This document shows positions 18,165-36,255 of a stretch of 64,000 bases of DNA, in pieces. The notes below the pieces were generated by a model. The model did not search any database and was not told the DNA's origin. It was given only the letters and a program-made list of their open reading frames with translations. Position 1 is the first letter of the stretch; every line of letters starts with the position of its first letter. Source of the DNA: a virus (taxonomy: Duplodnaviria; Caudoviricetes). The stretch lies in IMG/VR virus record IMGVR_UViG_3300005611_000021, positions 743 to 64,742 of that record, one strand, 5' to 3'. A program made the position numbers and the translations under genes.

Positions 18165-18788
18165 ATGTGTATGCCGGACACCAAATGGGCGAAAGAAATC
18201 CTCGAGCGTGCCGACCGCGGGGAAAAAATACCAAAAGCTGATCTTCAGAAGGCCAGTGACATCCTCCATGATGAACTGAGTGAGACGGCCGCCAAATCAA
18301 AGACCCTTCCCTCTAGGGCAAAGAACCAAACCGTCCTCGCGGAATGCCTTGGCCTGGAACGCAAAACGATTCAGCGCTGGAAGAAGGACAACCCGGATAC
18401 TTTCCCCAGGCCAAAGGCGAACGGGTCCTATGATGTGGATGCCGTCATCAAGTGGATGGATGCCAATGGGAAGTCAGCTCCGAATGTACCCGCTGGGGGT
18501 GAAGGTCTCGAGGAAGGCGAATCGATTGTTTCCCTCAAGATGCGCCAGCTCCGGCTGATGTGCGAGAAATTGGAGCATGAGCTCTCCGTAAAGAAAGGGG
18601 AATACACCGCGAATGTGGATGTTGAGCAATGGGTCGGGAATATGGTGTCAGAAGCCAAATCCATCCTGCTCCGGATTCCATCCAAGGCCGCTCCGATACT
18701 CGCGGGTATGTCTCCTGCTGAGATCGAGGACTACCTGAAGGAATGCGTCGACGAAGCCCTGGCGAAGCTTCATAATGCCAGCAGTTGA
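18165..18788 (+). CDS. terS: Terminase small subunit (lambda Nu1-like)
   Basis: HTH LAECLGLERKTIQRWKK, GSYDVDAVIKW, C-terminal coiled coil and LLRIPSKAAP region. Confidence 0.8.
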   Translation: MCMPDTKWAKEILERADRGEKIPKADLQKASDILHDELSETAAKSKTLPSRAKNQTVLAECLGLERKTIQRWKKDNPDTFPRPKANGSYDVDAVIKWMDANGKSAPNVPAGGEGLEEGESIVSLKMRQLRLMCEKLEHELSVKKGEYTANVDVEQWVGNMVSEAKSILLRIPSKAAPILAGMSPAEIEDYLKECVDEALAKLHNASS

Positions 18789-18948
18789 CACCCTTGTTCC
18801 GTTTATGGTTGAACTACCACCATTCGGAAACTCACCTTTTCCAGAAACCTGTGAATCCTGCAACACCCAGAAGCTTTGTGCAAGGAAAGCCAAGTGTCTC
18901 CTCAATGTTCGGCACGCCTTCTCGGAGTTGACACAACATCCAAAGAAT

Positions 18949-19395
18949 ATGAATCCACTCGCATCTCGTTTAATCGCCCTCGATGAGGGACTTGATGAAA
19001 TTATCGCTTCCCGTGCGGAACGCCTCCATGGGGATCTTGAATTTGCCCGTGGTGAAGAAGAAGGCCGCCGTAAGGGTGGAGGCTTTGCCGCTGGTGCGGG
19101 TACCGCAGCCGCCTTGCTTGCAGGTGGGAAATTTGCTCACTCTGCCGGAAAGCGTTACAAGAAAATCCGTAAACGCAACCCGGATGGTGGAAGAATGAAA
19201 GCTGCCGGACAAGCAACAAAGGATGTCGGAAGACTTTGGGGCCATAAAGTTGGATCTGCTACTCGAGCTGGTGTCCGTAAAGCAAAGGATCTTGCTGGAA
19301 AGCCAGGACAGATGGTGGATGACTTCAAGACACGGCGTGAATATCGTCAAGCATTCAAGAGAATACGCGACGAGAAGGTTTCCGCTTCTTCTTAA
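18949..19395 (+). CDS. Basic Gly-zipper protein with LEF leader (in-frame upstream ATG at 18805 also possible)
   Basis: MNPLASRLIALDEGLDE...DLEFARG; GFAAGAGTAAALLAGG. Confidence 0.75.
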   Translation: MNPLASRLIALDEGLDEIIASRAERLHGDLEFARGEEEGRRKGGGFAAGAGTAAALLAGGKFAHSAGKRYKKIRKRNPDGGRMKAAGQATKDVGRLWGHKVGSATRAGVRKAKDLAGKPGQMVDDFKTRREYRQAFKRIRDEKVSASS

Positions 19396-19418
19396 TCTAA
19401 TCTCAATCTTTCAAAACT

Positions 19419-19754
19419 ATGAATTCCGCAGAACGACTTATCTCTCTTGAGGCTCAACTTGATGAGGCTCTTGAATTTGAAAACTACGCTGAACCAAAGC
19501 GCCATCAAGGTGATGGTGGCCCACGAGCAGCAACCATTCTTGCCGGGGGTGCTGGACTTGCTGCCGCTGGTAAGGTTGGATATGATGTCCACAAGCGCTA
19601 CAAGAAGCTTCGTAAGGCATCTGCCGACAAACGTATTCCTGACTTAGGCGTTCGTGGGTCTCTTCAATCTGCGGGCAAACAGACTGCCAAAGCTTACAAA
19701 AAGGGTATTGGTCGTCGAGTTCGTGCCCTCAAGGGTGTTTTCACTGGTAAGTAA
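19419..19754 (+). CDS. Basic Gly-zipper protein with LEF leader
   Basis: MNSAERLISLEAQLDEALEFEN; ILAGGAGLAAAG. Confidence 0.8.
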   Translation: MNSAERLISLEAQLDEALEFENYAEPKRHQGDGGPRAATILAGGAGLAAAGKVGYDVHKRYKKLRKASADKRIPDLGVRGSLQSAGKQTAKAYKKGIGRRVRALKGVFTGK

Positions 19755-20368
19755 TGCCAACTGACCCCCAGGCTGATTCCCTGGAAAAGCGCCGTGACCG
19801 TTGGAAGCGTCGCCGGAAGCAGGGAGCCGCACAGTCTCGAGGCCGCAATAATGGTTTCGGGTCTGTGAAGTTTAATCCACAACCGACCAAAAGCGATGAG
19901 GGGATCACCTACCATAGCGAGCGGCATCAAAGGCTTGTGGAGCTCGGGGAGGTCCATGGCCGATCTTTAATACAGTTTGCAGGTGCAGCAAAGCTAAGGA
20001 AGATTCGCCGGAAGAATCCTCACCGAGAGAGACATCTCATTGAGCACCGAGAAAATCGGATTCGAAAAAACATCGGGAATAAATCGTATTATCAGGATAT
20101 AGCGAATGCTGATATTACCTCTCGAGTGACAACAGCAAACGGGGGCATAAACCCTGATGTGGCAATAGATAACCTTCTGAAAAGAAAAGCTGAAGCCGCA
20201 GCTTATGCTAAAAAGCATGGCCTTTCTGGTGGCGGGTCTCGTGGCCTTTCAAGTGATGATCGTGAAGCATGGCACAACAAGAATGTACTCATCCACTCAC
20301 GTACATCAAAATTTGGCCCAAACCCCCGTAATCACAAAAGAAAAGGCGTTCGGGGGCATCGCCAATAA
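19754..20368 (+). CDS. Basic protein (IQFA variant motif)
   Basis: RLVELGEVHGRSLIQFAG; K/R-rich. Confidence 0.7.
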   Translation: MPTDPQADSLEKRRDRWKRRRKQGAAQSRGRNNGFGSVKFNPQPTKSDEGITYHSERHQRLVELGEVHGRSLIQFAGAAKLRKIRRKNPHRERHLIEHRENRIRKNIGNKSYYQDIANADITSRVTTANGGINPDVAIDNLLKRKAEAAAYAKKHGLSGGGSRGLSSDDREAWHNKNVLIHSRTSKFGPNPRNHKRKGVRGHRQ

Positions 20369-20393
20369 CTTTAATGCAGGGCATCTTGCAATC

Positions 20394-20464
20394 GGAGAAT
20401 GAATACAGGGGAAGCTCACCGGCGCGACGCGCCGAGGGGCTTTTTCTGTTATAGGACCCCAACC
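20394..20464. repeat. Direct repeat copy 1 (71 nt; long hairpin plus duplicate of terL 3' end)
   Basis: About 5 differences from the copy at 20822-20891. Confidence 0.9.
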
Positions 20465-20794: not shown

Positions 20795-20821
20795 GTGACC
20801 CCGACCCTTTTGCTTTTAGCT

Positions 20822-20891
20822 GGAGAATGAATACAGGGAAGCCCACCGGCGCGTCGTGCCGAGGGGCTTTTCCTGTTATAGGACCCCAACC
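20822..20891. terminator. Direct repeat copy 2; likely bidirectional terminator at the terL 3' end
   Basis: acaggg-aagccc...gggctt-ttcctgt hairpin between convergent genes. Confidence 0.7.
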
Positions 20892-22651
20892 GTCCCGGTG
20901 ATGAGTGCCCCAGTAAGGATCATGCACTCACAGTCCCAGTAGTGATTTGGGCGGCGAGGTTTGTTCACCCAGATGTATTTCACGCGGCCATGGGTGTCTA
21001 CAATTTCCTCGCGGCGCTCTGCGTTCATCTGGTCGATGTAGTCAATGGTGACGTTCTCCGGGAGTTGCCAGGGCGGACCCAGACCTTGCCTGTATTCCGC
21101 GAGTAAATCCTTGATGGAAGGATTGGAAAATACGAATAAGCGAACCGGCCGAACCATGCCTTGCATAGAGGTTCCCAACGCTGGATCGATGAGGGTGTCT
21201 TTCCAGACTTGGCGGACTCCATCGACATTGAAGTATTCGAAGTCATCCCCCTTCATCGGCTTCCATGTATAGCCAGATTTCGTCACCTCATCATAAACTG
21301 AGGTCGCGTTGTATCCCGAGTCAATGATGACATCATCATCTTCAATCCCGAGAGTCGGCAAGAGTTCTCGCAGCTCGGAGAAGCCTGGGAGCCGTCCATA
21401 GTCCATAAGGCGACTGGCTCCATGTGTCCCGAATGCCCGACAAACATAGTAGAGGCAATCCTTCTGGACATCCACCCCGATAAACCGCCGCTTCTCTCCC
21501 TCCCAGTGATCCCGGAGTTTGAAGCTTCCCTTGCGATCATTTTCCCATTTGGCGGATTTGCCATACTTCAGGCGATCTTCCCAAGGCTGACCAAGGGATT
21601 CTGTCACAAAGGTCTTCAGGGGCTCAGGATCGCCCCATGAGAGAGCTTTCTTGGATGAGATGAATTCCTCAACCAAATCCCGCCATGCGACCCATGTGGG
21701 AAGGATCGCATTCCATGTGAAGGATTTTCTGTTGGATGGCGCCTCAAGGTTGGTCGGTACCCATTCGCCATCCATAGCGAGGCGGCGACGATCCCGTGGA
21801 TGGTCATAGATCTTGTGACCACATTTGGAGCATTGGATGTGAATGGTGGGGGCGAGTTTATCAAAGTCATAACGGCCGCCTGGTTTCGTATGATCGTTCG
21901 TCTCCCATTTCATGAAGAAGCCATCTTCTGCCCCCATTGAAAAATCCTCACTCCATAGAAGAGAATTTTCATTTCCGCACTGGGGGCAGGGGATCTTCCA
22001 TACCTGTTGATCGCCTTTGAGAAATTCCTGATGAACCGCATCATGCTCATCCCCTGGAGTTGAAATCACCACCTGCCGGGCGTTCCAGAAAGTTCGGCAC
22101 CGCTTGAGCACCATTGGTAGTGCTCCGGGAGGCCAGTTTCGGACCTCATCAAGTAGAAGCCAGCGCCGGGGCTTGGATTGGAGTTTCGAGGGTGCGTTGG
22201 ACCCGACAATCTCCAGGGTCATGTGTGGAAAAAAGATTTCCTTGGATTTGGCAAGCCCCCGGTCGTTGGGGATCATGTAGGCAACAGGCTCACACGCCCG
22301 GAGAGAGGGCATCATCCGTTCCTTGGCAAACTTGAGGGCTTCATCCTCATTGGCCGTCACCCACATGGCAGGCCCAGGATCTTCCGCAACCAACCAGTTG
22401 AGGAGTGCGAGCATGGTTTCCGTTTTGGCTGACTGAGCAGAACACATCACGGAGATGGAGCGAATCTTGTTGTCGGCGAAGGTCTCCATAAACTTCCGCA
22501 CCCAGGGAGAATTATCTGATCTCCATTTTCCGGGGAAAGGGGATACCGCAACCCGAAAGTGATCTTCTGCCCATTTCCAAGGTGGCCGCCGGTCTGCTGG
22601 CTTCCAACCAAGACTCGCTGCTCGACTCACGATGTTCATATCAGCTTCCAA
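20876..22651 (-). CDS. terL: Terminase large subunit (lambda GpA family)
   Basis: SPFPGKWRSDNSPW, Walker A SAQSAKTE, Walker B LLLDE, CPQC zinc motif, nuclease GVDVQ and NHYWDC. Confidence 0.95.
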   Translation of the reverse strand: MEADMNIVSRAASLGWKPADRRPPWKWAEDHFRVAVSPFPGKWRSDNSPWVRKFMETFADNKIRSISVMCSAQSAKTETMLALLNWLVAEDPGPAMWVTANEDEALKFAKERMMPSLRACEPVAYMIPNDRGLAKSKEIFFPHMTLEIVGSNAPSKLQSKPRRWLLLDEVRNWPPGALPMVLKRCRTFWNARQVVISTPGDEHDAVHQEFLKGDQQVWKIPCPQCGNENSLLWSEDFSMGAEDGFFMKWETNDHTKPGGRYDFDKLAPTIHIQCSKCGHKIYDHPRDRRRLAMDGEWVPTNLEAPSNRKSFTWNAILPTWVAWRDLVEEFISSKKALSWGDPEPLKTFVTESLGQPWEDRLKYGKSAKWENDRKGSFKLRDHWEGEKRRFIGVDVQKDCLYYVCRAFGTHGASRLMDYGRLPGFSELRELLPTLGIEDDDVIIDSGYNATSVYDEVTKSGYTWKPMKGDDFEYFNVDGVRQVWKDTLIDPALGTSMQGMVRPVRLFVFSNPSIKDLLAEYRQGLGPPWQLPENVTIDYIDQMNAERREEIVDTHGRVKYIWVNKPRRPNHYWDCECMILTGALITGTVGVL

Positions 22652-23577
22652 TTCAGACGTGATCCGGAATGATGGCCGTCCTTATACATGTTGCTCTTGT
22701 TCTTCCTGGTTCCCCCGAGCGTTAGGTGGTAGAATAGTTTGGCTTGGGGATTGATGCAATAATCTACCACATGCTTGAATGATGAACAGATGCAATGGAT
22801 CTCATCCGCACCTTCAAGGAGTTCCAGATAGTCGAAGATGTTGCCCGTTTTACTGAAATCCGGCTTGATGATCTCGAGACCTTCCCCCACATGGGTCCGG
22901 TTGATGTAATACCTTCGTTTGTCACACTCATGGAGGAATGCGTAGGGTTTTGTCGGTTTTGTCTGGTTTGTCAGATAGGCTTCCCGCACTCTGTCTCTTT
23001 TGAGGTGAAATTTCGTCCATCTCTGTTTCGGGTCCATTCCTACCAGCATGTAGAAGCATTCATCGAAAGAGAAATGTGGCCAATACCTTGTTACCGCACT
23101 GCCTCCTATGAGTACCCGTTCATTCTCCGGGAGTTCATTGAAGTAAAGGCGTGGTTTGGTGAATGCTTTGATTTTGATATCCGTATCCCGGTACATGAAG
23201 CGGATGGATTCCTCATACTTCGGGAGACACAAGAGAGTCGTGTCGTGTGTCTTGGCGAAATTTCTCACCAATGCGTTGCAGATGATGGAGTCTCCCATCC
23301 CCCAGTTGTGTAGAATCGTGATCTTTTCATCCGGGAGTCTCTTGTTCGGGTGTGGGATGGATTTAATCATCTTCCGGAATCTGGTCCATTCCGAGCCTCC
23401 CTTGTTCGATTCCATCTTGATTTGAGTCTGGATCACTGGATCGAGATTGTGCCAAATTTCCCTCAATGTCGGGATGAGTTGAGATTGTGCCCCCGTATGC
23501 TTTTGAAGTGCATATCTCATTGCAAAAAGGTAGGGGGCGCTTTTGGTGTAACTAAGTTTCATCTCTCGCGTGCGCAT
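22636..23577 (-). CDS. Glycosyltransferase-like protein (GT-B, GMGD motif)
   Basis: HNWGMGDSIICNALVR; GADEIHCICSSF. Confidence 0.6.
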   Translation of the reverse strand: MRTREMKLSYTKSAPYLFAMRYALQKHTGAQSQLIPTLREIWHNLDPVIQTQIKMESNKGGSEWTRFRKMIKSIPHPNKRLPDEKITILHNWGMGDSIICNALVRNFAKTHDTTLLCLPKYEESIRFMYRDTDIKIKAFTKPRLYFNELPENERVLIGGSAVTRYWPHFSFDECFYMLVGMDPKQRWTKFHLKRDRVREAYLTNQTKPTKPYAFLHECDKRRYYINRTHVGEGLEIIKPDFSKTGNIFDYLELLEGADEIHCICSSFKHVVDYCINPQAKLFYHLTLGGTRKNKSNMYKDGHHSGSRLNWKLI

Positions 23578-23715
23578 GTTCCCCTAAAGGGGAATTGGAT
23601 TTTTGTTTTATTTGATTTTTCTGGTCATTTTTGTTGGTTCAATGGTATGGAAGGGGTGCTAACGCCCTTCCCTTCCAACCACCAAATACGATTTGGACTT
23701 GTCCCAAGGCATGAC

Positions 23716-24213
23716 CTAAAGAGATTCGTAGATATCAAGGATGGGTTTGAGTGATTTTTTGAGAGTTCGACGTTCATCTGGACTCATCTTCTCGATGGGA
23801 GTTTTTGAAATCCCCTTCTTCCAATACTGATCCATCTTCATCGCCATCATCGGAAGGGATTCCATTCGCTTGTCGGTGAGTTTCGCTTGGTAGGTGGATT
23901 TCTTTCCATCATGGTCGATCCCGAGGCATTGACGGATGGAGGTGAACTTTCCGGAATCCAGATCAATTTCCCCGGATTCACATTTCCTGAACAGGGCGAT
24001 GTATTGGTATGCGGTTTTTCTCTTAAAGTTGAGGTTTTCCTCAATCCACTTCGGGAAGCTCTCCACTTCCGCTTGTACTTGTGCTAGGATCTCTCCTGCT
24101 TTTACAAAATACCGAAGGCTTCCCTTCATGGTCTGGACCCCTTCAGCATGGGCGTTCTTGATTTCAGTAGCTCGATTATCACCTCCGAGCGAGAGGGCAT
24201 TTTCAAACGTCAT
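23716..24213 (-). CDS. DUF3102-like protein
   Basis: AGEILAQVQ...FPKWIEENLNFKRKTAYQYIALF. Confidence 0.65.
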   Translation of the reverse strand: MTFENALSLGGDNRATEIKNAHAEGVQTMKGSLRYFVKAGEILAQVQAEVESFPKWIEENLNFKRKTAYQYIALFRKCESGEIDLDSGKFTSIRQCLGIDHDGKKSTYQAKLTDKRMESLPMMAMKMDQYWKKGISKTPIEKMSPDERRTLKKSLKPILDIYESL

Positions 24214-24619
24214 GGTGTCTCCTTAGTGCGGATTTTCGGTAGTTCTCACAAGCTTCCAGGGATTTTTGACCTGAACAGATAGGTAAGTCGAATTCCTTCT
24301 GGAAACGCTTGATCGATTTGGAAAGAGCTTGTTTGGTTACACCATGATCTTCGGCGATCTCTTTTTGGGTCTTGCCATGGAATAAAGGCAAACCGAATGC
24401 CTGGACGATGGCAGCGAGCTTGAGCCGGTAGTTGTGCGAGTCATAGATCAGGGCAATTATCTTCGTCAGGGCATCTTGTGTCTCCTGTCGTGCGAGCTCT
24501 TTGACAAGCTCTTGGATTTCCATTGGTAAATCAGAAATCTCCTCTATTGACCTTTCATTGGTTTCCTCTACGGAATCATAGTCGAAACCAACACTTCCCT
24601 CTTCTAACGGTGTTGACAT
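24203..24619 (-). CDS. HTH protein (sigma70 region 4-like)
   Basis: KTQKEIAEDHGVTKQALSKSIKRF. Confidence 0.7.
   Translation of the reverse strand: MSTPLEEGSVGFDYDSVEETNERSIEEISDLPMEIQELVKELARQETQDALTKIIALIYDSHNYRLKLAAIVQAFGLPLFHGKTQKEIAEDHGVTKQALSKSIKRFQKEFDLPICSGQKSLEACENYRKSALRRHHDV
24612..24618 (+). promoter_or_regulatory. GTTGACA motif
   Basis: 22 nt before ATG 24634; overlaps the start codon of the divergent HTH gene. Confidence 0.55.
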
Positions 24620-24633
24620 GATTATTTGGTGTT

Positions 24634-24873
24634 ATGAGCGTAAACGATTGGAGAATTGCTTATCGCATGTATTCAAGTCAAGAGCTTGACGAGGAACGTG
24701 CAAGGCTAAAAGAGGAGGCAAAGAATGCGTTGCTGTCTCAGTCAGCGGGGTCTCGGAGTTACACAAGGTCGGTCACACAGATCAACCAACAACTCCGAGC
24801 GCTTGCGGAAGTAGTTGACGAAAACAATGGTGTATCCAACATGGCTTCCACATACGTTGATTTCTCACAATGA
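24634..24873 (+). CDS. Head-to-tail joining protein (gpW-like)
   Basis: 79 aa directly before portal; SQSAGSRSYTR hairpin flanked by helices. Confidence 0.7.
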   Translation: MSVNDWRIAYRMYSSQELDEERARLKEEAKNALLSQSAGSRSYTRSVTQINQQLRALAEVVDENNGVSNMASTYVDFSQ

Positions 24874-26504
24874 CTGAACCGAAAACACCAAGAGCGTCCT
24901 GGCTGGACAAAACCATTTCCTTCATAAACCCGGAAGCGGGACTCAAACGGAAGTATTACAAAGATCAACTCGAGTTTGCTTATGATGCGGCAAACTTAGG
25001 AAGGGCAGCGGCAACACTCGGGGGGACGGCTTCCCTTGCTGCTCCGGAATCCCTTGCCAACCAACGGGATCGCATCAAGATGATGTGGGAAGCCCGGAAT
25101 CTGGTGAACAACTACTCATTTTTCAAATCTATCCTTCTGAAGGAAGCGATGTATGTCTGTGGCCAGATTCGGTACCAGTCTCAAACCGGGAATCCCGATA
25201 TTGACCGTCAAATTGAAAGCTACTTTTCGGAATGGAGCAAGAGGTGTGATGTGACAGGCCGCTACCCTTTCCGGCATCTGGTTCAACTCGCTCACATGGG
25301 GATGCGGAGAGATGGTGATGCGGGTTTTGCATTGGTGACTCAAGGGAAGGATGTTTTTCTTCAGGCAATCGAGGCGGATCGCTTAGGAAACCCCCATGAG
25401 GGCGGGAAAAATGATGATACCTACATCGGGGGAATTACCATCGATAATCTTGGCCGCCCCCATCAGTACCGGATTTTCAAGCGGACCCTCCACGGACAAT
25501 ACACGAATCCAAGGGATGTCCCTAAGTCAAATTTCATCCATTACATAGACCCGCTGCGAGCGGATCAATACCGAGGGATCACAGCCTTTGAGACTGCGAT
25601 TCCTCATGCTAAGGACTTGTATGAGCTTCTGCAAATGGAAAAACTCGCGGTCAAATGGGCTTCCGCTCATGCGGGTGTCATTACCAAAGATGACCATGGT
25701 AAGGACAAGTGGAGCTCAACCCCGGCGGCTGCCCCTCCACAACCAGGAGATCCGCTTCAGAAGGGCAACCACTTGAATCTTGAGGCCGTGCACGCCGGGA
25801 AGCTCATTCGGCTTCGGCCTGGTGAGAGCATGGAGGCATTCAGCACGAGTTCCAGGCCATCAGCGACTTTCAATGGTTTCATCACAACGCTCGTCCGGGA
25901 GATGGCCAATGGCCTCAACCTTCCGTTTGCGTTTGTGTGGGATATGAGTGCATTTGGGGGTGCGACTGCCCGGCTTGAGGTGCAGGCCGCCCAGCGTGCT
26001 TTCATGAGGCATCAACAACTTCTTCAGGAGCAAGTCCTTGATCCAGTGAAGAACATTGTGATTTCTCGGGCTATCGCTTTCGGGGATCTACCGCCCAATG
26101 CCAATTACCGCAAAGGGCGCTGGCAGTTCAATTCCCAGATCACCGCTGATCTTGGTCATGAAACCCAGGCCAACCTTTCTCTTCTCGAGGCGGGTCTCAA
26201 GACTCGTGGAACTATCATCGGTGAAAGTGGCCGTGATTTCGAAGAAGAAATTGAAAAGATTGCCAAAGAAATCGCCTACATGGAGGAAATGAGCAGGAAA
26301 TACAAGATCCCACTCGCTCTCATCGCTAAGACTCTTGAAGGTGGCTCCAAGGCTATTGTGGATTATCGTGAAGCCCTCGCAAGTGAAGCGGAAGGTCAGG
26401 AGCCTTCAGATCATGATGCAGAGATCGCAGCGAAACAAACCATGGCACAAACGGCCGCTCAACTTCAGGCTCAGAATCAATTTGCACCCGCTCAACCCGA
26501 ATGA
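24870..26504 (+). CDS. Portal protein (lambda family)
   Basis: LQAIEADRL, GITIDNLGRPHQYRI, DQYRGIT, L.PGE, ARLE motifs; 544 aa. Confidence 0.95.
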   Translation: MTEPKTPRASWLDKTISFINPEAGLKRKYYKDQLEFAYDAANLGRAAATLGGTASLAAPESLANQRDRIKMMWEARNLVNNYSFFKSILLKEAMYVCGQIRYQSQTGNPDIDRQIESYFSEWSKRCDVTGRYPFRHLVQLAHMGMRRDGDAGFALVTQGKDVFLQAIEADRLGNPHEGGKNDDTYIGGITIDNLGRPHQYRIFKRTLHGQYTNPRDVPKSNFIHYIDPLRADQYRGITAFETAIPHAKDLYELLQMEKLAVKWASAHAGVITKDDHGKDKWSSTPAAAPPQPGDPLQKGNHLNLEAVHAGKLIRLRPGESMEAFSTSSRPSATFNGFITTLVREMANGLNLPFAFVWDMSAFGGATARLEVQAAQRAFMRHQQLLQEQVLDPVKNIVISRAIAFGDLPPNANYRKGRWQFNSQITADLGHETQANLSLLEAGLKTRGTIIGESGRDFEEEIEKIAKEIAYMEEMSRKYKIPLALIAKTLEGGSKAIVDYREALASEAEGQEPSDHDAEIAAKQTMAQTAAQLQAQNQFAPAQPE

Positions 26505-29006: not shown

Positions 29007-29645
29007 ATGAGAGTATGGAAATCCAATGTTGAGCCGCCTTTAGGTTGGGAAGTGAATCCTGATCTCTCCAGGCGTTATGGCCGAACGATCATTACTGAAA
29101 CCATTGAGCAATCCAAGATCCAGAAAGTCCGGAAGCGTAAGGGGCTTATGGCTTTGTTCGAGGAGCGGAAGCAGGAATCTCCGGAAGATCGTCGACGGAA
29201 AGCCTTGGTTGCCGCCGGGGTCGCAGCGGGAACGATCGGGTCAGGGGCAGGAATGTGGAAGATTGGCCATGACCGTGCTGTTTTGGATGACTATGAGCGA
29301 AGGCTAAAGCGTCATGATAAGAATCTCACTGATACGGAAAATCGCCTTCGTTCTGAGCGTGAAGGGATGGAGGCATCCAAATCCCGCTCTCAAGTGCAAA
29401 AGGACTTCAAGGGAAACACAGACGCCCTTCCTCCAACTATGCGGCCTGGTGGTGATAAGCGAAAGCAATACAGGGAGGAACGCCTCGGTAAGGTCATGGG
29501 GGTTGGCCACATTAAGGATCGTGGACGCCGGAAAGCTGTCCGGGGAAAATGGAAGAATGGCAAGTTTATCCCTCAAAAGAGCATCCTTCAATACATCCTT
29601 CCAGACAAGCGAATCCCCAAGGTGTTGTCAGGGCTACACCGTTGA
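29007..29645 (+). CDS. Basic Gly-zipper protein
   Basis: GLMALFEE; LVAAGVAAGTIGSGAG. Confidence 0.7.
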   Translation: MRVWKSNVEPPLGWEVNPDLSRRYGRTIITETIEQSKIQKVRKRKGLMALFEERKQESPEDRRRKALVAAGVAAGTIGSGAGMWKIGHDRAVLDDYERRLKRHDKNLTDTENRLRSEREGMEASKSRSQVQKDFKGNTDALPPTMRPGGDKRKQYREERLGKVMGVGHIKDRGRRKAVRGKWKNGKFIPQKSILQYILPDKRIPKVLSGLHR

Positions 29646-29647
29646 CT
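29641..29647 (+). promoter_or_regulatory. GTTGACT motif
   Basis: 21 nt before ATG 29662. Confidence 0.55.
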
Positions 29648-29661
29648 TTTAATCCATTGCC

Positions 29662-31503
29662 ATGAATCACAACAATGTCATTTCTTTGCCTGGGTCCGGT
29701 GTTATTGAGGCCGGTGATGCCCTTGTCATCAATTCCGCGGGAAAAGCTTCTCGCCCTGGCAATGATGATTTTAAGGAAAAGCATATTGGGGTCGCGTTGC
29801 AGGATTTTGATAGCTCAGAGTCTTCCATGGCGGTTGATATCCAACTTTTTTGCCATGCGTCCGTTGCGAATGTGAATCTTGATGGCCTCATTGAGCCAGG
29901 AGATGCCGTGGCCGTGGAAAGTGAGAGTCACATCCTGGTTCCTCTTGGTGATCCTCTCCCTGACAATCAGCGTCAGGTTGGAGTCTCTTTGACGAGTGTG
30001 ACGGCCGCCGGGGTGCATTCCATTGATCTTTTGATCCAAGAACGTGTTGGCCTTGGTGTCTATGTAAGTGGAGTTCCTATCCAGCAGTTGTCCGTACCGC
30101 CTGGAATTCCTGATACTGGTACGATGGGAATGGTCGGTAGCCCCGCGGGAACCCCAACTTTCAACACCGTTCCACGTCCTCTACCTGCTGACAATTCAGG
30201 GAATCCGGGGTCTATGACCCTTGAGGGATCACACCCAACTGGCACCATTAGTCCTGTTGTGATTCAGATACCAGGCGACAATTCAGGAAATCCAGGGTCC
30301 ATGACTCTTGAAGGGTCACATCCAACCCACTCCGCTCTCAATAGTGTCACTCCCATACCTACTGCTACCACATGGACAGGGGAAAGTGCGGATGATCGCT
30401 TTGGTTGGGATGTCGGTATGGATGAACAAGGTTATACGGTTGCGATTGGAGCCAGTTACCGCAGTAGTCAGGATGGAGAGGTTTATACCCATTACTTCGA
30501 TGGTGGATCTTGGCAGGCTGGTGACACCATGACTGGGCCAACTGATGGAGAGCTTGGTCGCTCATTGGCCGTTAGTAAGGATGGTTCTCACATGGTCATC
30601 GCTGGCCCGCAGTTTAATAATCGTGGCCATGCTGAAGTCTGGGAGCAGACATCTCCCGGTACATGGTCCCTGAAATACACTTTTACCGCTGTCCAACTTC
30701 CCAATGTGGGAGGTCAGTTTAATGTGAATCGGAATGTGGCGATTTCTGCTGATGGGTCTCGAGTCGTGATCGGGGAACCGATGGCGAATATCGGCCTCTC
30801 AGACAATGGGCAGGTGCGAGTATTTGAGTGGAATGGAACAACCGCTTATGCTCAGATTGGACAGACAATCGTAGGTGCGGCCTCTAAGGATTCTTTTGGT
30901 TATGCCGTGGATATCATTGATGACGGTAGCAAGATTGTTGTAGGTGCGCCTCAACGAACTGCTGATGATCCATTCGGGTACATCCATCTCTATGAATACG
31001 ATGGGGTGGATACCTGGACCCTTGATGACTCTATCGCTGCAACCTCTAATTATGAGTTTGGTTACAGTGTATCAATTTCAGGTGATGGAACCTGGCTCGC
31101 GGTAGGAAATCCTCTTCGCCTTTCCAATAATGGTGGATTTCAGATCTACAAGTATGTCGGAGGTTCTTTTGATGTTGCAAATGTGACGACTTGGGGCGGG
31201 GCAGGGCGAACCGGTGAATCTCTCTCCATTAGCACGAATGGCGATAAGTTGATCGTTGGAAAACCTGAATCCAGTGCAGGTGCAGCCGGGGTTTATTCTC
31301 GCTCGGGAGATACCTGGTCCAAAGTTTCTGATGTGAGTACACCAACAGGCTTGGATGCGGGGGATGGTCATTTTGGCTACCGGGTCGCGATCTCCGGTGA
31401 TGGGAATGTTGCGATTGTCGGTGGATACACCTGGGATTCTAATGGGGCGGCTTGGTTGCTGGTTCTTGATGGAAGTGACCCGATCGTTCCAATCCCTGTG
31501 TAG
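29662..31503 (+). CDS. Capsid-cement (DUF2190-like) domain fused to a 7-bladed FG-GAP-like beta-propeller
   Basis: MNHNNVISLP N-terminus shared with 31977 and 33466; seven FGxxVA(I/M)SxDGxxxxxGxP-type blades. Confidence 0.75.
   Translation: MNHNNVISLPGSGVIEAGDALVINSAGKASRPGNDDFKEKHIGVALQDFDSSESSMAVDIQLFCHASVANVNLDGLIEPGDAVAVESESHILVPLGDPLPDNQRQVGVSLTSVTAAGVHSIDLLIQERVGLGVYVSGVPIQQLSVPPGIPDTGTMGMVGSPAGTPTFNTVPRPLPADNSGNPGSMTLEGSHPTGTISPVVIQIPGDNSGNPGSMTLEGSHPTHSALNSVTPIPTATTWTGESADDRFGWDVGMDEQGYTVAIGASYRSSQDGEVYTHYFDGGSWQAGDTMTGPTDGELGRSLAVSKDGSHMVIAGPQFNNRGHAEVWEQTSPGTWSLKYTFTAVQLPNVGGQFNVNRNVAISADGSRVVIGEPMANIGLSDNGQVRVFEWNGTTAYAQIGQTIVGAASKDSFGYAVDIIDDGSKIVVGAPQRTADDPFGYIHLYEYDGVDTWTLDDSIAATSNYEFGYSVSISGDGTWLAVGNPLRLSNNGGFQIYKYVGGSFDVANVTTWGGAGRTGESLSISTNGDKLIVGKPESSAGAAGVYSRSGDTWSKVSDVSTPTGLDAGDGHFGYRVAISGDGNVAIVGGYTWDSNGAAWLLVLDGSDPIVPIPV
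30190..30327 (+). repeat. Two copies of 17-aa DNSGNPGSMTLEGSHPT (87-nt period)
   Basis: Identical peptide, DNA differs at wobble positions (30190-30240, 30277-30327). Confidence 0.9.
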
Positions 31504-31509: not shown

Positions 31510-31538
31510 CTTTAACTTGATGAAACAAAAGACTTACT

Positions 31539-32336: not shown

Positions 32337-32347
32337 CCCGCGAGAGA

Positions 32348-33433
32348 ATGAAAGATTTGATTTTTTTCCACGCCATTGATGGCCGCATTGATGAAGCTAA
32401 TGGCATTATTTCTGGGGTTTCCCTTATTACTATGGGGAATGCTCGCGGTCACAACCTTGAGGTTGATGAGACCACTCTCAATCAACTCAAGCTTTCTCTT
32501 GATAATACCGCTGAACCAGGGATCAAGGCGAAACTGAATCACCGAACAGGGGTGGAGGCTGTCTTTGGTTATATCAAAAACTTTCATGTCGTTGGTAATA
32601 AGTTGACGGGAGACCTTCACATGCTGAAGGCTCACAAGGACTACAATCAAACCATGGAGCAAATTAAAACCCTACCGAAGCAAATTGGCCTCTCTGTGGC
32701 GTTCCAAGGTGACAAGGAACCCGGTGCGGATGGGAAAGTTTACGCTCGGTGCAAAAGAATTGTATCCGTTGATTTGGTTGCAGATCCCGCTGCCAACCCA
32801 GACGGTATGTTTGAAGTGAAAGTTGACAAAGGAACGCAGAATATGGAACTCGAAGAACAACTCAAGGCTATCATAGATGGCCAACAGAAAATCAACGACC
32901 GCCTTGATGGTCTTGAGCAGTTTAATGCAGACATCTCAGATGCCATCGAGTTGAATCTTGGTGAGCTTGAAGAAGATGACTACGAAGACGACGACTACGG
33001 AGACGTTGAGTATGAAGACGACGACGACTACGAAGACGACGACTATGAGGACGTTGAGTATTCTGCCATCGATGACATGCTGACTTACCTCGAAGCGAAA
33101 GCTGATGGGGCCATGCAAGCTGAAGAAGATGCCCGTTTTGATGCGGCCTTCGATGTGATTGAGGACAAGGTTGCTCAACTCGCCATCCAAAATGAAGAAC
33201 TTCAACTTCAAAATGAAGCTCTCCAGGAAGCTCTCGAGATGGATGCCATTGAGCCTCTTGCACCTTCCTCTGAAGCTTACCTTTTTTCTTCCGGTGCGGA
33301 AGACGGAACTTTTGAGTTTGCGGTTCAGACCGCGACTGAACATGCTGAAACCCCACAGGATGCAATTCGTACGGCCGTGACCAACAATCCTGTTGCTCAC
33401 CGCGAATGGCTCCAGCGTCAGGGCATTCTTTAA
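32348..33433 (+). CDS. Prohead protease (HK97/T4 gp21-like) fused to acidic scaffold
   Basis: Candidate catalytic KLNH, GLS, SVDLVADPA; acidic coiled-coil C-terminal half. Confidence 0.85.
   Translation: MKDLIFFHAIDGRIDEANGIISGVSLITMGNARGHNLEVDETTLNQLKLSLDNTAEPGIKAKLNHRTGVEAVFGYIKNFHVVGNKLTGDLHMLKAHKDYNQTMEQIKTLPKQIGLSVAFQGDKEPGADGKVYARCKRIVSVDLVADPAANPDGMFEVKVDKGTQNMELEEQLKAIIDGQQKINDRLDGLEQFNADISDAIELNLGELEEDDYEDDDYGDVEYEDDDDYEDDDYEDVEYSAIDDMLTYLEAKADGAMQAEEDARFDAAFDVIEDKVAQLAIQNEELQLQNEALQEALEMDAIEPLAPSSEAYLFSSGAEDGTFEFAVQTATEHAETPQDAIRTAVTNNPVAHREWLQRQGIL
32822..32828 (+). promoter_or_regulatory. GTTGACA motif inside the protease gene
   Basis: 21 nt before the in-frame ATG at 32843. Confidence 0.55.
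32843..33433 (+). CDS. Nested scaffold protein (internal in-frame start)
   Basis: MELEEQLKAII...; begins right after the protease domain, as lambda Nu3 does within C. Confidence 0.6.
   Translation: MELEEQLKAIIDGQQKINDRLDGLEQFNADISDAIELNLGELEEDDYEDDDYGDVEYEDDDDYEDDDYEDVEYSAIDDMLTYLEAKADGAMQAEEDARFDAAFDVIEDKVAQLAIQNEELQLQNEALQEALEMDAIEPLAPSSEAYLFSSGAEDGTFEFAVQTATEHAETPQDAIRTAVTNNPVAHREWLQRQGIL
32972..33061 (+). repeat. Imperfect tandem duplication encoding (E)DDYEDDDY(G/E)DVEY x2
   Basis: Visible in both DNA and protein. Confidence 0.8.
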
Positions 33434-33465
33434 TTTTACCTACCAAAAAGAAAGGACTCAGGTAA

Positions 33466-33834
33466 ATGAATCACAATAATGTAATTTCACTCCCAACCGA
33501 CTTGACCTCGACCTATGTGGCCGGGGATCTCGTGTCGCTCAACTCTCAAGGGCAAGCCGTTCCTAATTCTGGATCTGGTGTGGCTCTGGGGGTCGTTCTT
33601 CATGATGTCCAGGCTACGGAAACAGGTCGCCCGGTTGATCTCCAGTTACTTGGTGGAGGCGGTATCGCCCTCATCAATGGTACTGGCGCTATCAACAAGG
33701 GGGATCACGTAGGCTATGGGTCAGGCGCTCCAAAGAAAGTTATTTCTGGTAATGGGGCGACAACTAAAATCGGCATTGCCCAGGAATCTCTTGGTGCGGA
33801 TGTCGATGGTCTCATCCGTGTAATCCTTCTTTAA
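33466..33834 (+). CDS. Capsid cement/decoration protein (DUF2190-like), paralogue 3
   Basis: MNHNNVISLP; ALGVVLHD; GAINKGD; IGIAQE; directly upstream of the major capsid gene. Confidence 0.8.
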   Translation: MNHNNVISLPTDLTSTYVAGDLVSLNSQGQAVPNSGSGVALGVVLHDVQATETGRPVDLQLLGGGGIALINGTGAINKGDHVGYGSGAPKKVISGNGATTKIGIAQESLGADVDGLIRVILL

Positions 33835-33846
33835 TCCACCAGACAA

Positions 33847-34872
33847 ATGTATAAAAATACACACGCAGTAATTCGTCACGACCTAAACGCATTTGTCGAG
33901 GAGGCAGCTTCCACCGACAAACTTTTAATCGGCGCCAAGCTTTGCCCAATGCTTCCGGTTGATGCCCGTGCGGGTCTCTATCCGAAGATTGAAATCGGCA
34001 ATGGCGGTGAACTCCTGAAAAAGGATGCAACCCTTCGTGGTCCTACTGGTACCTACAACGAAACAACCCGCAAATTCATCACTGATACTTATGAGTGTCT
34101 TGATCGTGGTCTCGAGGAGCGGATTGACGATGTTGTAGTTCGTGACTACAAGAAGTTTTTTGATGTCGAGGTTCTTACAGCCAAGCTCATTATGCGTACC
34201 ATGAAGCTTGATTATGAATCTCGTATTTATGATCTCCACCAAACCATCGGTAATTTCCTTAGCCTGGACGCATCTGATGTCAGTCAAAATGGCAATGGAC
34301 CTACAAATAAGACCTGGGGAACGGTTGATGGTCTGGCAGAGTGTGACTTCGCTCTCTTTCTTATGAATCTGATTCGCCAACTGACTATGCGGGGTGAAAC
34401 TCCAAATACATTGGTGATCGGTGAAGAGGCATGGAAGTTTATGCGTCGCACCACCAAACTCAACACTTTCCTCTATGGTTCTCTCGGTACTGGCCTTGGC
34501 TATAAGATGGTCTCGGAAGCTGATATCGCAAAGCAGTTTAGGCTGTCCAATGTGTATATCGTTCACGCCCACATCGATAGTGCAGCTCGCAATAAAGAGG
34601 CAAGCCTGACCCCGCTTTGGGACAATAATAAGGTTTGGCTCGGTGAGGTAAAAGGAGGGGAAATCTCCGGCGGTGGCGCATCCCGTACAATGTGCTGGAC
34701 CCCTGATGGTAGCGGCCTCTTCACCACTGAAACTTACCGGAATGAAACCCGGAGAGGGGATATGGTGCGTGTCCGTCATCACACAGCCGAAAAAATCGTT
34801 AACAAAAATGCTGGTGTCATTGGTCATTTCGCAGCTGCGAATGCTCATGCCAATAGCATCACTTGGAACTAA
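33847..34872 (+). CDS. Major capsid protein (lambda gpE/Mu-like HK97 fold)
   Basis: 341 aa after protease and cement genes; PNTLVIGEEAW; VRVRH near C-terminus; followed by a terminator. Confidence 0.9.
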   Translation: MYKNTHAVIRHDLNAFVEEAASTDKLLIGAKLCPMLPVDARAGLYPKIEIGNGGELLKKDATLRGPTGTYNETTRKFITDTYECLDRGLEERIDDVVVRDYKKFFDVEVLTAKLIMRTMKLDYESRIYDLHQTIGNFLSLDASDVSQNGNGPTNKTWGTVDGLAECDFALFLMNLIRQLTMRGETPNTLVIGEEAWKFMRRTTKLNTFLYGSLGTGLGYKMVSEADIAKQFRLSNVYIVHAHIDSAARNKEASLTPLWDNNKVWLGEVKGGEISGGGASRTMCWTPDGSGLFTTETYRNETRRGDMVRVRHHTAEKIVNKNAGVIGHFAAANAHANSITWN

Positions 34873-34901
34873 GTTTTCCTCGCGGGAAACCGCACTAACG
34901 G

Positions 34902-34934
34902 AAAGGCTTCCTCGATTCTCGGGGGAGCCTTTTT
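34902..34934 (+). terminator. Intrinsic terminator after the capsid gene
   Basis: aaaggcttcc...gggagcctttt. Confidence 0.8.
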
Positions 34935-34941
34935 GTTGACT
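34935..34941 (+). promoter_or_regulatory. GTTGACT motif
   Basis: 20 nt before ATG 34955, immediately after the terminator. Confidence 0.55.
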
Positions 34942-34954
34942 CAACAAATAGGTT

Positions 34955-35302
34955 ATGCCCACTTCACCATTCAATCAGGCTATGAATACCTCATTTGTCG
35001 CTCCAGGGATGCGAATGATGGGTGAACAGATGTGGGTGGATGGAGCTCCTTTCAAGGCCATCTATGATCCGCTTGAGGTTGGGAAGGTTCGTAAGGGTGG
35101 AGGTATGGATACTGATGGAGCCACAACCGTCTTTATTGAGCGTCACATCATCATGAGTCTAAAGATCAATGATGGTTCAATTCTATCCTTCTCTCACCAG
35201 GGCGGCCAGGTTCGCCTTCGTGTGGAATCCATTGAGGATGATGGCAGCAACATTTTGGAAGTCAGGGTTGGTCCTCGCCTCAAGGGAAGCCTTTCATTGT
35301 GA
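34955..35302 (+). CDS. Head-tail joining protein (gpFII-like)
   Basis: 115 aa beta-rich ORF in the expected position. Confidence 0.6.
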   Translation: MPTSPFNQAMNTSFVAPGMRMMGEQMWVDGAPFKAIYDPLEVGKVRKGGGMDTDGATTVFIERHIIMSLKINDGSILSFSHQGGQVRLRVESIEDDGSNILEVRVGPRLKGSLSL

Positions 35303-35457
35303 GTCGATTCCTCAAGCGATTGATCCGCATGGATGAAGAGGATCGCATCCGGGAAAATAGTGAGGCTGTTGAGAAACAGCTTGATTCTACTGGTGAAAAA
35401 ATTTTAGGGTCCACATTCGGGGATGAATGGGATTTACAACCGGAGGAAAATGAATGA
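35299..35457 (+). CDS. Small hypothetical protein (52 aa, not in ORF track)
   Basis: GTGA and ATGA overlaps at the two ends. Confidence 0.5.
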   Translation: MSRFLKRLIRMDEEDRIRENSEAVEKQLDSTGEKILGSTFGDEWDLQPEENE

Positions 35458-35888
35458 GTGGTCCATATCAAGACGTTAAGCGGGAACTCGAGCAGGTGTT
35501 TTGCAATTTGCTCAAAGAGAAGATAGGGGTTGAGTTTAAGCCATATAAGGCAGATGAGGAACTTGACACTCCCTATGGGGTTGTCGCCTGTTCATCCTGT
35601 CGCCCTATTGCCGGGGGCGCCTCTCCTCGGGGATGGAGAGCCGAGGTGAAGGTCGCCTATGTTTCTCACATCGATGAAGTGAACTCCGGGGTACATTCCC
35701 AGAAGGTTGCGGAAATTGAGGATGCTATTAGCCTGGTTCCTCAAGCGGCCGTGGAGGATTATCAACTCCAAGAAAATCACATCAAGGTTGCTGGACTCTT
35801 TATCAAGGAGCATCGGGATCAGAGTGAATCCCAGTCTTTCGGAGATGTCTTCGATGTGGATGTCGGGGTGAATGAATGCAGGGGTTGA
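35454..35888 (+). CDS. Tail completion/terminator-like protein
   Basis: 144 aa; position and alpha/beta pattern. Confidence 0.55.
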   Translation: MSGPYQDVKRELEQVFCNLLKEKIGVEFKPYKADEELDTPYGVVACSSCRPIAGGASPRGWRAEVKVAYVSHIDEVNSGVHSQKVAEIEDAISLVPQAAVEDYQLQENHIKVAGLFIKEHRDQSESQSFGDVFDVDVGVNECRG

Positions 35889-35890
35889 CA
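35884..35890 (+). promoter_or_regulatory. GTTGACA motif
   Basis: 21 nt before ATG 35905. Confidence 0.55.
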
Positions 35891-35904
35891 GCTAAAGCCA
35901 GTAT

Positions 35905-36255
35905 ATGACTACAAAGATCGGAGATTGCGCCTACATTTATGGCATTTCGGGTGATACTGTTGCTGGCATCACTCTTGAGTCTCGCCGTGTGGAGACGGAA
36001 CCTGAATTTGAAAGTACCGCCACAGATGATGACGGCAATGTTGCTGCTGTTGTTCGTGGGGGTGACAAGATCACCTACACCTTGTCTGGATTTGTGGATG
36101 CCAGCCTCGACCTGGATGCTCATGGATGCAAGATTGTGATCGATGGTCATGAGTGTCACGTCGAGAAGTGGGCAATCAACCGATCCAATAATGATTTTGC
36201 CAAATGTGAATTGACCGCCGTGAAGTATCCAAAGGCGGTTGTTTGCTGCTCATAA
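35905..36255 (+). CDS. Tail-tube-like protein, paralogue 1
   Basis: 116 aa all-beta; SNNDF.K.E.T shared with the next gene. Confidence 0.6.
   Translation: MTTKIGDCAYIYGISGDTVAGITLESRRVETEPEFESTATDDDGNVAAVVRGGDKITYTLSGFVDASLDLDAHGCKIVIDGHECHVEKWAINRSNNDFAKCELTAVKYPKAVVCCS

Follow-up and report, generated by a model that had tools for sequence, protein, structure and literature searches.

A GTTGACA box at a set distance from start codons in a phage family: a candidate single-element promoter for leaderless or nearly leaderless mRNAs

The window, a stretch of 64 kb, comes from the 97%-complete record of an uncultured phage of ∼65 kb with marine relatives. The phage has a lambda-like gene order (gpA-type terminase, portal, a gene with a nested start, cement protein, capsid protein), and ATG 24634 opens a structural block of ∼40 kb on the plus strand. 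A sequence-only reading had noted the word GTTGAC(A/T) shortly ahead of start codons and had taken it for a candidate promoter of late genes, or else for a signal of translation initiation. All nine motif/start pairs that it listed are present (every box of Table 1 other than the GTTGACG variant), and the looser copies at 1675 and 31503 and the orphan copy at 60514 match its description. The window holds further copies of GTTGACW, at 12368, 28204 and 43927, which were absent from that list. Three of the nine start codons (18805, 18949 and 32843) lie in frame within longer open frames without being their first ATGs; for 18949 and 32843, the relatives provide support for genuine initiation. In relatives, a separate gene led by a box has an N-terminus that corresponds to residues 49 onward of the ORF that contains 18949. 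Initiation at 32843 is predicted to yield a nested C-terminal product of 196 aa, and in relatives the spacing at this site is fixed and the linker peptide variable; the enclosing ORF gave no match to a protease or scaffold family.

Table 1. Boxes and associated genes in the window
Position	Strand	Feature	Spacer	Start codon	Remark
18165-18788		terS			phrog_57, E 1.6e-26
18784-18807	+	box GTTGACA	14 nt	ATG 18805	TGA of the box is the terS stop
18927-18951	+	box GTTGACA	15 nt	ATG 18949	ATG in frame within ORF 18805-19395
24203-24619	-	HTH protein, 138 aa			acidic N-terminus; HTH at ∼residues 80-109; 35-62% identical in all relatives
24612-24636	+	box GTTGACA	15 nt	ATG 24634	TTGACAT conserved in every clade
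29641-29664	+	box GTTGACT	14 nt	ATG 29662 (613-aa FG-GAP protein)	upstream gene ends at the TGA of the box
32822-32845	+	box GTTGACA	14 nt	ATG 32843	in-frame internal start in ORF 32348-33433
34908-34957	+	terminator-like hairpin and T-run, then box GTTGACT (34935-34941)	13 nt	ATG 34955	after the capsid gene
35884-35907	+	box GTTGACA	14 nt	ATG 35905 (116-aa gene)	TGA of the box is the upstream stop
56291-56316	+	possible variant box GTTGACG (one mismatch)	16 nt	GTG 56314	TGA is the stop of ORF 54844-56295
56797-56822	+	box GTTGACA	16 nt	ATG 56820 (284-aa gene)	
63694-63717	+	box GTTGACA	14 nt	GTG 63715 (65-aa frame)	start assignment uncertain

At 24612 the box also has a role on the opposite strand, where its CA and the following T make up the start codon of the HTH gene, which is divergently oriented, and the box encodes Met-Ser-Thr; the two divergent start codons are only 14-15 bp apart. 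The start codon of the HTH gene overlaps one box in every clade. The order hairpin, box and ATG seen after the capsid gene recurs in the relatives G403, G404 and G406 and in metagenome contigs, and the 116-aa gene, which precedes the tape-measure region, has orthologous boxes in G403, G405 and G406. A scan of metagenome contigs gave 11 loci, and no short contig ends at a site. The small terminase gene itself has TTGACT 26 nt ahead of its ATG, and repeats were not seen there. Identity of the HTH protein with the small terminase was ruled out, terS being the gene at 18165-18788.

By number alone the word is not over-represented in the window: 16 copies of GTTGACW were found against 14.7 expected, and 43 of 100 shuffles held at least 16. 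Fifteen of the 16 copies lie on the plus strand (P 2.6e-4), no perfect copy precedes a minus-strand start, and a window-only scan of the box against any ATG was not significant once corrected for multiple testing. With gene calls made blind to the motif, TTGACW was found 19-22 nt upstream of 5 of the 56 plus-strand starts of this genome (P 1.9e-7). When five related phage genomes were pooled, again with motif-blind calls, the same held for 27 of 258 coding-strand starts against a null rate of 0.2% (P 3.9e-36), and the positional check that the earlier reading had proposed thus reveals a placement far from random.

The relatives gave a consistent picture. A scan of every 6-mer at every offset in nine of them ranks TTGACA at offset 20 first, with an ATG at that offset for 25 of its 63 copies (P 1.5e-26), and nothing comparable was found on the other strand. 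Each related record holds 8-12 sites on the coding strand as against 0-1 on the opposite strand, and 5-7 instances of the exact box-to-start pattern as against 0 for a reversed control. Typically GTTGACA stands 14 bases ahead of the start codon, at ∼10 genes per genome, and the signature persists across genome GC contents of 40-54%. The box is also kept at orthologous gene starts, namely at the front of the portal operon, at the nested in-frame scaffold-like start, immediately behind the terminator that follows the capsid gene and at the front of a tail gene.

A logo was built from 50 sites and covers -30 to +15. Its G-TTGACA block is invariant, all sites carrying a perfect TTGACA or TTGACT, and the box equals the -35 consensus of sigma-70. 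The distance from the T of TTGACA to the start codon is 19, 20, 21 or 22 nt in 8, 33, 6 and 3 sites, respectively. Besides an AT-rich stretch at -6 to -2 and a T at -1 (41 of the 50 sites), no second conserved block was found in this range. In the motif-blind calls, T at -1 marks 70% of box-led starts and 30% of the others (P 6e-5), and words resembling a Shine-Dalgarno sequence precede 1 of 27 box-led starts as against 54 of 231 others (P 0.013). Bacterial transcription starts are generally marked by a pyrimidine at -1 and a purine at +1. A transcription start site (TSS) at the ATG would fit these sites, since box-led genes combine the lack of a Shine-Dalgarno sequence with T at -1 and A at +1. 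The start codons themselves are genuine, because codons 2-5 differ among relatives at third positions only.

The sequence-only reading had argued that this geometry is not that of a canonical sigma-70 promoter, and our counts bear it out. With the start codon 19-22 nt after the T of TTGACA, a canonical TSS would fall ∼15 nt inside the gene. TAnnnT follows TTGACW at 17 bp in 4 of 248 cases (2.9 expected) and is likewise not enriched over the range of 16-18 bp. Information at -12 to -7 of the logo amounts to only 0.04-0.14 bits, leaving no -10 TANNNT near the start, codons 2-3 of the box-led genes carry no -10 pattern, and a scan for the sigma-70 pattern returned 17 sites where 17.5 were expected. 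The portal-operon box of one relative (L015) is followed by TATTCA at 17 bp and then a leader of ∼45 nt, and is thus a near-canonical promoter. These genomes show no avoidance of unattached TTGACW copies, which means that something besides the box must be required.

The upstream stop codon lies within the box at ∼22 of the 50 sites and abuts it at ∼10 more, and the remaining 18 have no terminating ribosome nearby. Three classes are of this kind: the first gene of a strand block, internal in-frame sites (the TGA of which falls in another frame) and sites that follow a terminator hairpin. Among other uncoupled genes of the same genomes, many use AGGAG or A-rich leaders. The box regions had no Rfam match, neither an enriched complement of the box nearby nor a stable or special fold was found, and the region is slightly less structured than random. 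In a box-poor sister clade the capsid terminator has one GTTGACA upstream of it instead of after it, and palindromes stand immediately upstream of two boxes. Comparison of gene content between the clade and this sister clade found no gene that discriminates box presence; the genes common to the clade are the structural and packaging genes, the HTH gene, a DUF3102 gene and terS only, all of which the sister clade also has.

The HTH protein is a candidate reader of the box or a regulator acting through it. Its matches to the Pfam families r4 and r4_2 of sigma-70 region 4 (14-15 bits; cut-offs 24-26) and to TIGR02937 (19 bits; cut-off 43) are below threshold. An AlphaFold2 model has a pLDDT of 65; the best Foldseek E value was 0.12, and the structural aligner VIA-align gave a best Z of 4.8, with sigma chains at 3.8-4.7. 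These fold searches pointed to a generic HTH only, a PDB profile search gave no clear assignment, and atlas neighbours bearing r4 scored 0.76-0.77 against the protein. A search with the protein for more relatives revealed no further contigs. The link between gene and box is circumstantial: it consists in the conservation of the gene and its overlap with one box, but the gene is also present in the sister clade, where such sites are few. Since the box is the sigma-70 -35 consensus, region 4 of a host sigma factor could also read it, possibly repositioned by a phage factor, and the earlier label of a non-sigma70 promoter may not hold. We found no sigma-like or RNA polymerase gene in the phage, the sole region 4 signal being the 14-bit one inside the HTH gene. 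The Sigma70_r2 model had no match in the 97%-complete record at E values up to 10, a search that a very diverged factor would escape, and no ORF, the presumed tape measure aside, is large enough for a single-subunit polymerase.

The host probably belongs to the Verrucomicrobiota. The pattern does not appear to be a native host signal, as GTTGACA-N13-TATG did not exceed its reversed control in any of 401 Verrucomicrobiota genomes, and 260 kb of two Verrucomicrobiota genomes had no peak at offset 20. In the verrucomicrobium Akkermansia, 10% of starts are leaderless (PMC4782308).

What the sites share is a conserved box at a set spacing, a T/A dinucleotide at the start, and the lack of both a Shine-Dalgarno sequence and a -10 box. 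The reading that we favour, and hold to be somewhat probable, is that GTTGACA is a single-element promoter, read on DNA and giving leaderless or nearly leaderless mRNAs. The box, at -21 to -15 from the start codon, would be the only element with sequence specificity in a class of promoters peculiar to this phage family, followed by ∼7 uninformative bases, the AT-rich stretch at -6 to -2 and the T at -1. Its reader may be host sigma region 4 or the HTH protein, the transcript would start with the A of the ATG or, at most, a few bases before it, and an mRNA with little or no leader would make a Shine-Dalgarno sequence unneeded. With ∼10 such units in each genome, the long structural operon would gain internal transcription starts, placed at its first gene, at the nested start for a shorter scaffold-like product, immediately behind the terminator of the capsid gene and in front of a tail gene. 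This part of the earlier interpretation stands in so far as the geometry is non-canonical, the box is conserved and the site features fit a TSS at the ATG. The assignment to late genes holds in part only, as boxes are also found before small genes without assigned function at 56-64 kb and before the gene that follows terS.

The promoter reading is favoured by the three site classes that have no upstream ribosome terminating nearby, by the identity of the box with the -35 consensus, a known protein-DNA recognition word, by the near-canonical promoter around the L015 box and by the lack of an RNA family match, enriched complement or special fold. Against it count the GTTGACA upstream of the capsid terminator in the sister clade and the failure to find a sigma-like or RNA polymerase gene; moreover, a fixed distance to the AUG is equally expected of a ribosome-binding signal, and a stop in or abutting the box at 32 of 50 sites also suits termination-reinitiation. 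These last points lead to the main rival, to our mind somewhat unlikely, in which the box acts on RNA and GUUGACA, 14 nt before the AUG, enhances initiation or re-initiation of translation at genes without a Shine-Dalgarno sequence, either by capturing ribosomes that have just terminated at its UGA or by pairing with or binding a ribosomal component. The epsilon enhancer of T7 gene 10 acts in this last way, and a 5-nt match to any 16S rRNA is expected by chance. Fixed spacing is typical of ribosome-binding signals, and the overlapping stops, the missing Shine-Dalgarno sequences and the slightly reduced structure all agree with action on RNA. It accounts poorly for the 18 sites without a nearby terminating ribosome and for the many other uncoupled genes that rely on AGGAG or A-rich leaders; T at -1 is specific to box sites, the word is a classic DNA recognition hexamer, and 14 nt is farther from the AUG than known pairing signals.

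We think it improbable that the box is an operator through which the HTH protein or a host regulator represses or times genes whose true promoters lie elsewhere. Autoregulation would suit the overlap of a box with the HTH start codon in every clade, and the palindromes of the sister clade are in keeping with an operator, but neither the fixed 14-nt distance nor the T at -1 would be needed, the site, one asymmetric 7-mer, is confined to a single strand, and no other conserved promoter element was seen nearby. Very improbable, in turn, are ordinary sigma-70 -35 elements with the -10 element and TSS inside the following gene, serving genes downstream, the ATG spacing being incidental. The hexamer is indeed a perfect -35 consensus, and the copies at 28204 and 31503 sit 35-37 nt before an ATG, the canonical leaderless distance; nevertheless, TAnnnT is not enriched at 16-18 bp, codons 2-3 lack a -10 pattern, the pattern scan did not exceed expectation, and this view would not explain why a genuine start codon follows at so tight a spacing. 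Chance, composition or a coding artefact could be suspected from the unenriched motif count and the non-significant any-ATG scan in the window, and from the Met-Ser-Thr codons that the 24612 box supplies to the divergent gene. With P ∼4e-36 for motif-blind calls in five genomes, a signature that holds over 40-54% GC and a reversed-pattern control of 0, such an origin is effectively refuted.

No bacterial RNA polymerase holoenzyme is known to start 14 bp past a -35-type hexamer that lacks a -10 partner. The mechanism of the promoter reading would therefore be unprecedented, and we found no description of such promoter geometry in the literature. A more specific proposal, which we regard as unlikely, is that the HTH protein, as a stand-alone protein resembling sigma region 4, binds GTTGACA at -21 to -15 and sets host RNA polymerase to start exactly at the start codon 14 bp downstream, without a -10 element, producing leaderless late mRNAs that include one for the nested scaffold isoform.

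Several known systems offer partial parallels. T4 late promoters carry TATAAATA at -13 to -6, which gp55 recognises together with gp33 and the gp45 clamp. Like them, the box is one short, near-invariant, phage-specific element close to the gene start, without a second hexamer, and is repeated before many individual late genes within operons (here 8-12 sites per genome). Unlike them, its word equals the host -35 consensus and lies 14 bp from the presumed TSS as against 5 bp in T4, and no homologue of gp55, gp33 or sigma region 2 was found here. Nested scaffold genes are known from lambda C/Nu3, where an in-frame internal start with an internal Shine-Dalgarno sequence gives a C-terminal product. 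In the phage, too, the gene that immediately precedes the decoration and capsid genes holds an in-frame internal start, but one marked by GTTGACA and not by an internal Shine-Dalgarno sequence. Leaderless genes of Deinococcus-Thermus and Actinobacteria have a -10 TANNNT a few bp before the ORF; RpoD reads this fixed element as an ordinary -10 box, and the addition of a -35 box is of help only with a spacing of 17 bp (PMC12340547, PMC4007540). The phage sites share with them a fixed distance between element and start, the lack of a Shine-Dalgarno sequence and the pyrimidine at -1 and purine at +1, and the phage mRNA is presumed to begin, as theirs does, at or next to the AUG; the phage sites differ in having a -35-type word at -21 to -15 as their fixed element and no information at -12 to -7. 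In phages of Gram-positive bacteria, the late activators of the Ltr superfamily (RinA, ArpU, LtrA), small proteins with a Sigma70_r4-like domain, recognise direct repeats that lie upstream of one terS promoter (PMC3753634). The HTH protein is similar in size (∼140 aa), in its C-terminal HTH, in its weak likeness to sigma region 4 and in its position beside packaging and morphogenesis genes, and by this analogy it is a candidate switch for late transcription. In contrast to Ltr, the phage has a single 7-mer at ∼10 sites per genome, fused to start codons, and a homology between the HTH protein and Ltr or sigma proteins is tentative at most.

A promoter role for the box would depart from the usual bacterial geometry, with a -35-type word only 14 bp from the TSS and no -10 box, and would imply a new way of positioning RNA polymerase, via a phage factor or a repositioned sigma region 4. 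Initiation of a nested protein and restart after a terminator would then be solved by leaderless mRNAs and not by ribosome-binding sites. Should the start be positioned by the HTH protein, the promoter architecture would be new. The box provides a simple rule for correcting start calls and finding nested genes in abundant marine phages that probably infect Verrucomicrobiota.

Here "box" denotes GTTGACA or GTTGACW at a fixed distance 5' of a start codon, start codons with such a box are termed box-led, and the offset is counted from the first T of TTGACA to the start codon. As a word the motif is not enriched in the window, where GTTGACW occurs 16 times against 14.7 copies expected from shuffling, 15 of them on the plus strand, and in a scan of every 6-mer at ATGs of any kind, restricted to the window, the motif did not stand out after multiple testing. 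The signal becomes visible in the window only once gene starts are taken into account. A perfect TTGACA lies 17-24 nt upstream of 7 of 67 plus-strand starts and of 0 of 32 minus-strand starts (null rate 0.24%), and with motif-blind gene calls, for which the first ATG of the longest frame was taken as the start, TTGACW at 19-22 nt precedes 5/56 plus-strand starts of the window genome (P 1.9e-7). All nine motif-to-start pairs listed in the sequence-only reading were recovered at their coordinates. Two more copies of TTGACA, with an ATG at offsets 21 and 20, were seen at bases 62 and 641 of the parent record, within the 742 bases that precede the window. At window 28204 and 31503, GTTGACW stands 35-37 nt 5' of an ATG (28242 and 31539), as far as a canonical -35 element would be from a leaderless start, with no recognisable -10 box in between.

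We used the portal protein to collect 24 related IMG/VR loci (47-70% identity). In an unbiased scan of 6-mers at exact offsets over nine non-redundant loci, TTGACA at offset 20 from ATG came out on top, with 25 of its 63 copies so placed (P 1.5e-26), followed by GTTGAC at offset 21; nothing comparable was seen on the opposite strand. In the whole records of four related phages (G403-G406, GC 40-54%) the coding strand carries 8-10 sites each and the opposite strand 0-1; exact TTGACA-N14-ATG was counted 5-7 times per related record, while its reversed control never occurred. When the motif-blind calls of five genomes were pooled, a box preceded 27 of 258 starts (P 3.9e-36), which bears out the positional enrichment upstream of starts that had been proposed as a check. 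The sites are orthologous among relatives, recurring 5' of the small first gene of the portal operon, twice at the gene that precedes the cement and capsid genes (its full-length start and an ATG in frame within it), immediately 3' of the terminator hairpin behind the capsid gene, before the small gene preceding the tape-measure region, and after terS. Placement of the box is real and conserved, and is statistically overwhelming with the relatives included. The sister clade represented by record G407 (portal 47%) has four such sites only, with spacers of 14-17 nt, and one of its GTTGACA copies is placed before the capsid terminator, not after it. At about 315-345 and 38865-38895 of G407, palindromes (GTGACACGCGTGTCAC and a near copy) lie directly 5' of two GTTGACA boxes and look like operator sites.

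The parent IMG/VR record is linear, with 64,742 bases and a completeness estimate of 97%; neither tRNAs nor Rfam families were found in the window. The terL gene forms one minus-strand operon with the HTH gene (24203-24619), which encodes a 138-aa helix-turn-helix (HTH) protein, the clade-shared DUF3102 gene and an unknown 313-aa gene (window 22636-24619), and is set apart from both terS and the portal gene. Between the minus-strand block and terS lies a divergent control region (18011-18165). It contains an extended -10-like TGcTATAAT that runs with its final bases into the ATG at 18012, and, 26 nt 5' of the terS ATG, a TTGACT in the loop of a hairpin (18129-18148).

Main genes and gene blocks of the window
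Feature	Position	Strand	Remarks
Block of genes mostly without known function	2.7-18 kb	-	
Small terminase (terS)	18165-18788	+	phrog_57, E 1.6e-26
Large terminase (TerL)	20876-22651	-	gpA-type
Structural block	24634 onwards	+	long
Portal	24870-26504		
Cement-like protein	33466-33834		
Major capsid protein	33847-34872		

A logo built from 50 non-redundant sites shows an essentially invariant hexamer, its last position A or T, with G directly 5' of it in 47/50. About seven positions without information follow; -6 to -2 is AT-rich with a purine at -3 in 39/50 sites, T occupies -1 in 41/50, and the start codon is ATG in 42 and GTG in 8. Offsets of 19, 20, 21 and 22 nt occur in 8, 33, 6 and 3 sites, respectively. 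In this logo and in a spacer test no -10-like signal appeared at -12 to -7 or 16-18 bp after the hexamer, in agreement with the earlier claim that TTGACA has no -10 partner here. At about 22 of the 50 sites the upstream gene terminates at the TGA within the box, at about 10 others a TAA or TAG directly adjoins the box, and at the other 18 no upstream gene ends nearby. The box at 24612 supplies, with its CA and the T that follows, the start codon of the divergently oriented HTH gene, so that 14 bp separate this codon from the start codon at 24634; the overlap is kept in every clade. Box-linked start codons are, as judged from these comparisons, genuine, since codons 2-5 of the gene before the portal (Met-Ser-Val-Ala-Asn) differ among relatives at third positions only and its N-terminus can be aligned across clades.

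Inside the ORF at 32348-33433, located just 5' of those for cement and capsid protein, an in-frame start at 32843 is conserved and is predicted to give a nested C-terminal product of 196 aa, an arrangement similar to lambda C/Nu3. The full-length start is also box-led in the counterparts in G404, G405 and G406, but not in the window. At the internal site, the peptide from the box-encoded Val-Asp to the internal Met is different in every relative while its length is unchanged, so that it is the nucleotide spacing that is constrained. A separate observation concerns ORF 18805-19395, which looks as if two genes, separate in relatives, had been joined in frame: its residues 1-41 match the gene after terS and those from 49 on the next gene, with both box-plus-ATG units kept, 143 nt apart.

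The most likely function of the box would be that of a phage-family-specific single-element promoter yielding leaderless or near-leaderless mRNAs; we consider it somewhat probable that the box acts at the DNA level, with the transcript starting at or next to the ATG. It could instead be read on the RNA as a translation signal, given that ribosome-binding signals, too, characteristically keep a fixed distance to the AUG and that the frequent overlap of box and stop codon would suit re-initiation. However, three classes of site cannot rely on a ribosome terminating upstream, which favours a promoter: those at the first gene of the strand block, the internal in-frame sites, whose TGA is not in frame, and those just after a terminator. 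The same is suggested by Shine-Dalgarno-like words, which precede 1 of 27 box-led genes as compared with 54 of 231 other genes of the same genomes (P 0.013), non-box genes of the low-GC relatives having clear AGGAG words 6-9 nt 5' of the ATG. We noted an AGGAG Shine-Dalgarno before many box-less genes in G403, G404 and G406 (40-44% GC); in the window genome (50% GC) it is rarer than in these three, and A/C-rich leaders are common.

Further arguments for a promoter are the fixed nucleotide spacing at the internal site and the T at -1, found at 70% of box-led and 30% of other starts (P 6e-5). In Cappable-seq data, transcription starts in general are marked by a pyrimidine at -1 with a purine at +1; the study also reported that 10% of starts are leaderless in the verrucomicrobium Akkermansia, and that some transcripts of E. 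coli begin at internal in-frame AUGs (PMC4782308). The complement of the box is not enriched near the sites and the box region has only slightly less structure than random sequence, both again in favour of a promoter. So is the word itself, since TTGACA is what sigma region 4 classically recognises, together with the related locus L015, where TATTCA follows the portal-operon box at 17 bp and the leader measures about 45 nt, making a near-canonical promoter. On the other side, no holoenzyme is known to initiate 14 bp past a -35-type hexamer when the -10 element is missing. Of the two functions offered by the sequence-only reading, the late promoter with short or leaderless mRNAs is favoured by box-led starts that lack a Shine-Dalgarno and carry T at -1, and recognition on the RNA is rather unlikely.

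Verrucomicrobiota are probably the host phylum, because prophage terminases of several metagenome-assembled Verrucomicrobiota and of Opitutaceae TAV1 share 44-46% identity with TerL. The box-plus-spacing pattern is not native to this phylum: GTTGACA-N13-TATG showed no meaningful excess over the reversed control in any of 401 Verrucomicrobiota genomes, and the offset-20 peak was absent in 260 kb of two of its genomes. Only structural and packaging genes, terS, the DUF3102 protein and the HTH protein are common to the clade, early genes not being shared in the gene-content comparison; with so small a shared set, the reader of the box would be host machinery or one of the conserved proteins. The HTH protein is the obvious candidate, being 35-62% identical across relatives and encoded divergently beside the structural operon with its start codon in a box. 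Its link to the box is a hypothesis, since its repeated hints of a likeness to sigma-70 region 4 are all sub-threshold (14-15 bits to Pfam r4 and r4_2; 19 bits to TIGR02937, cut-off 43; Atlas neighbours, scores 0.76-0.77), its matches by Foldseek, VIA-align and a PDB profile search are to generic HTH folds only, and the box-poor sister clade also encodes it. Its AlphaFold2 model is mediocre (pLDDT 65).

The nearest functional analogue is the T4 late promoter, likewise one invariant short element before many late genes, although the word and its distance to the transcription start differ. T4 late promoters need gp55 and gp33, and no homologues of these were found in the phage. Leaderless genes of Deinococcus-Thermus and Actinobacteria share with the box a fixed promoter-to-ORF distance; they have a normal -10 box a few bp 5' of the ORF, and a -35 box is helpful at 17 bp only (PMC12340547). 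For the HTH protein the nearest analogue is the Ltr superfamily (RinA, ArpU, LtrA), small, sigma region 4-like late activators that bind repeats at a single terS promoter (PMC3753634). None of the T4-type, leaderless and Ltr families is matched in full; the box would fall among phage-specific promoters fused to start codons.
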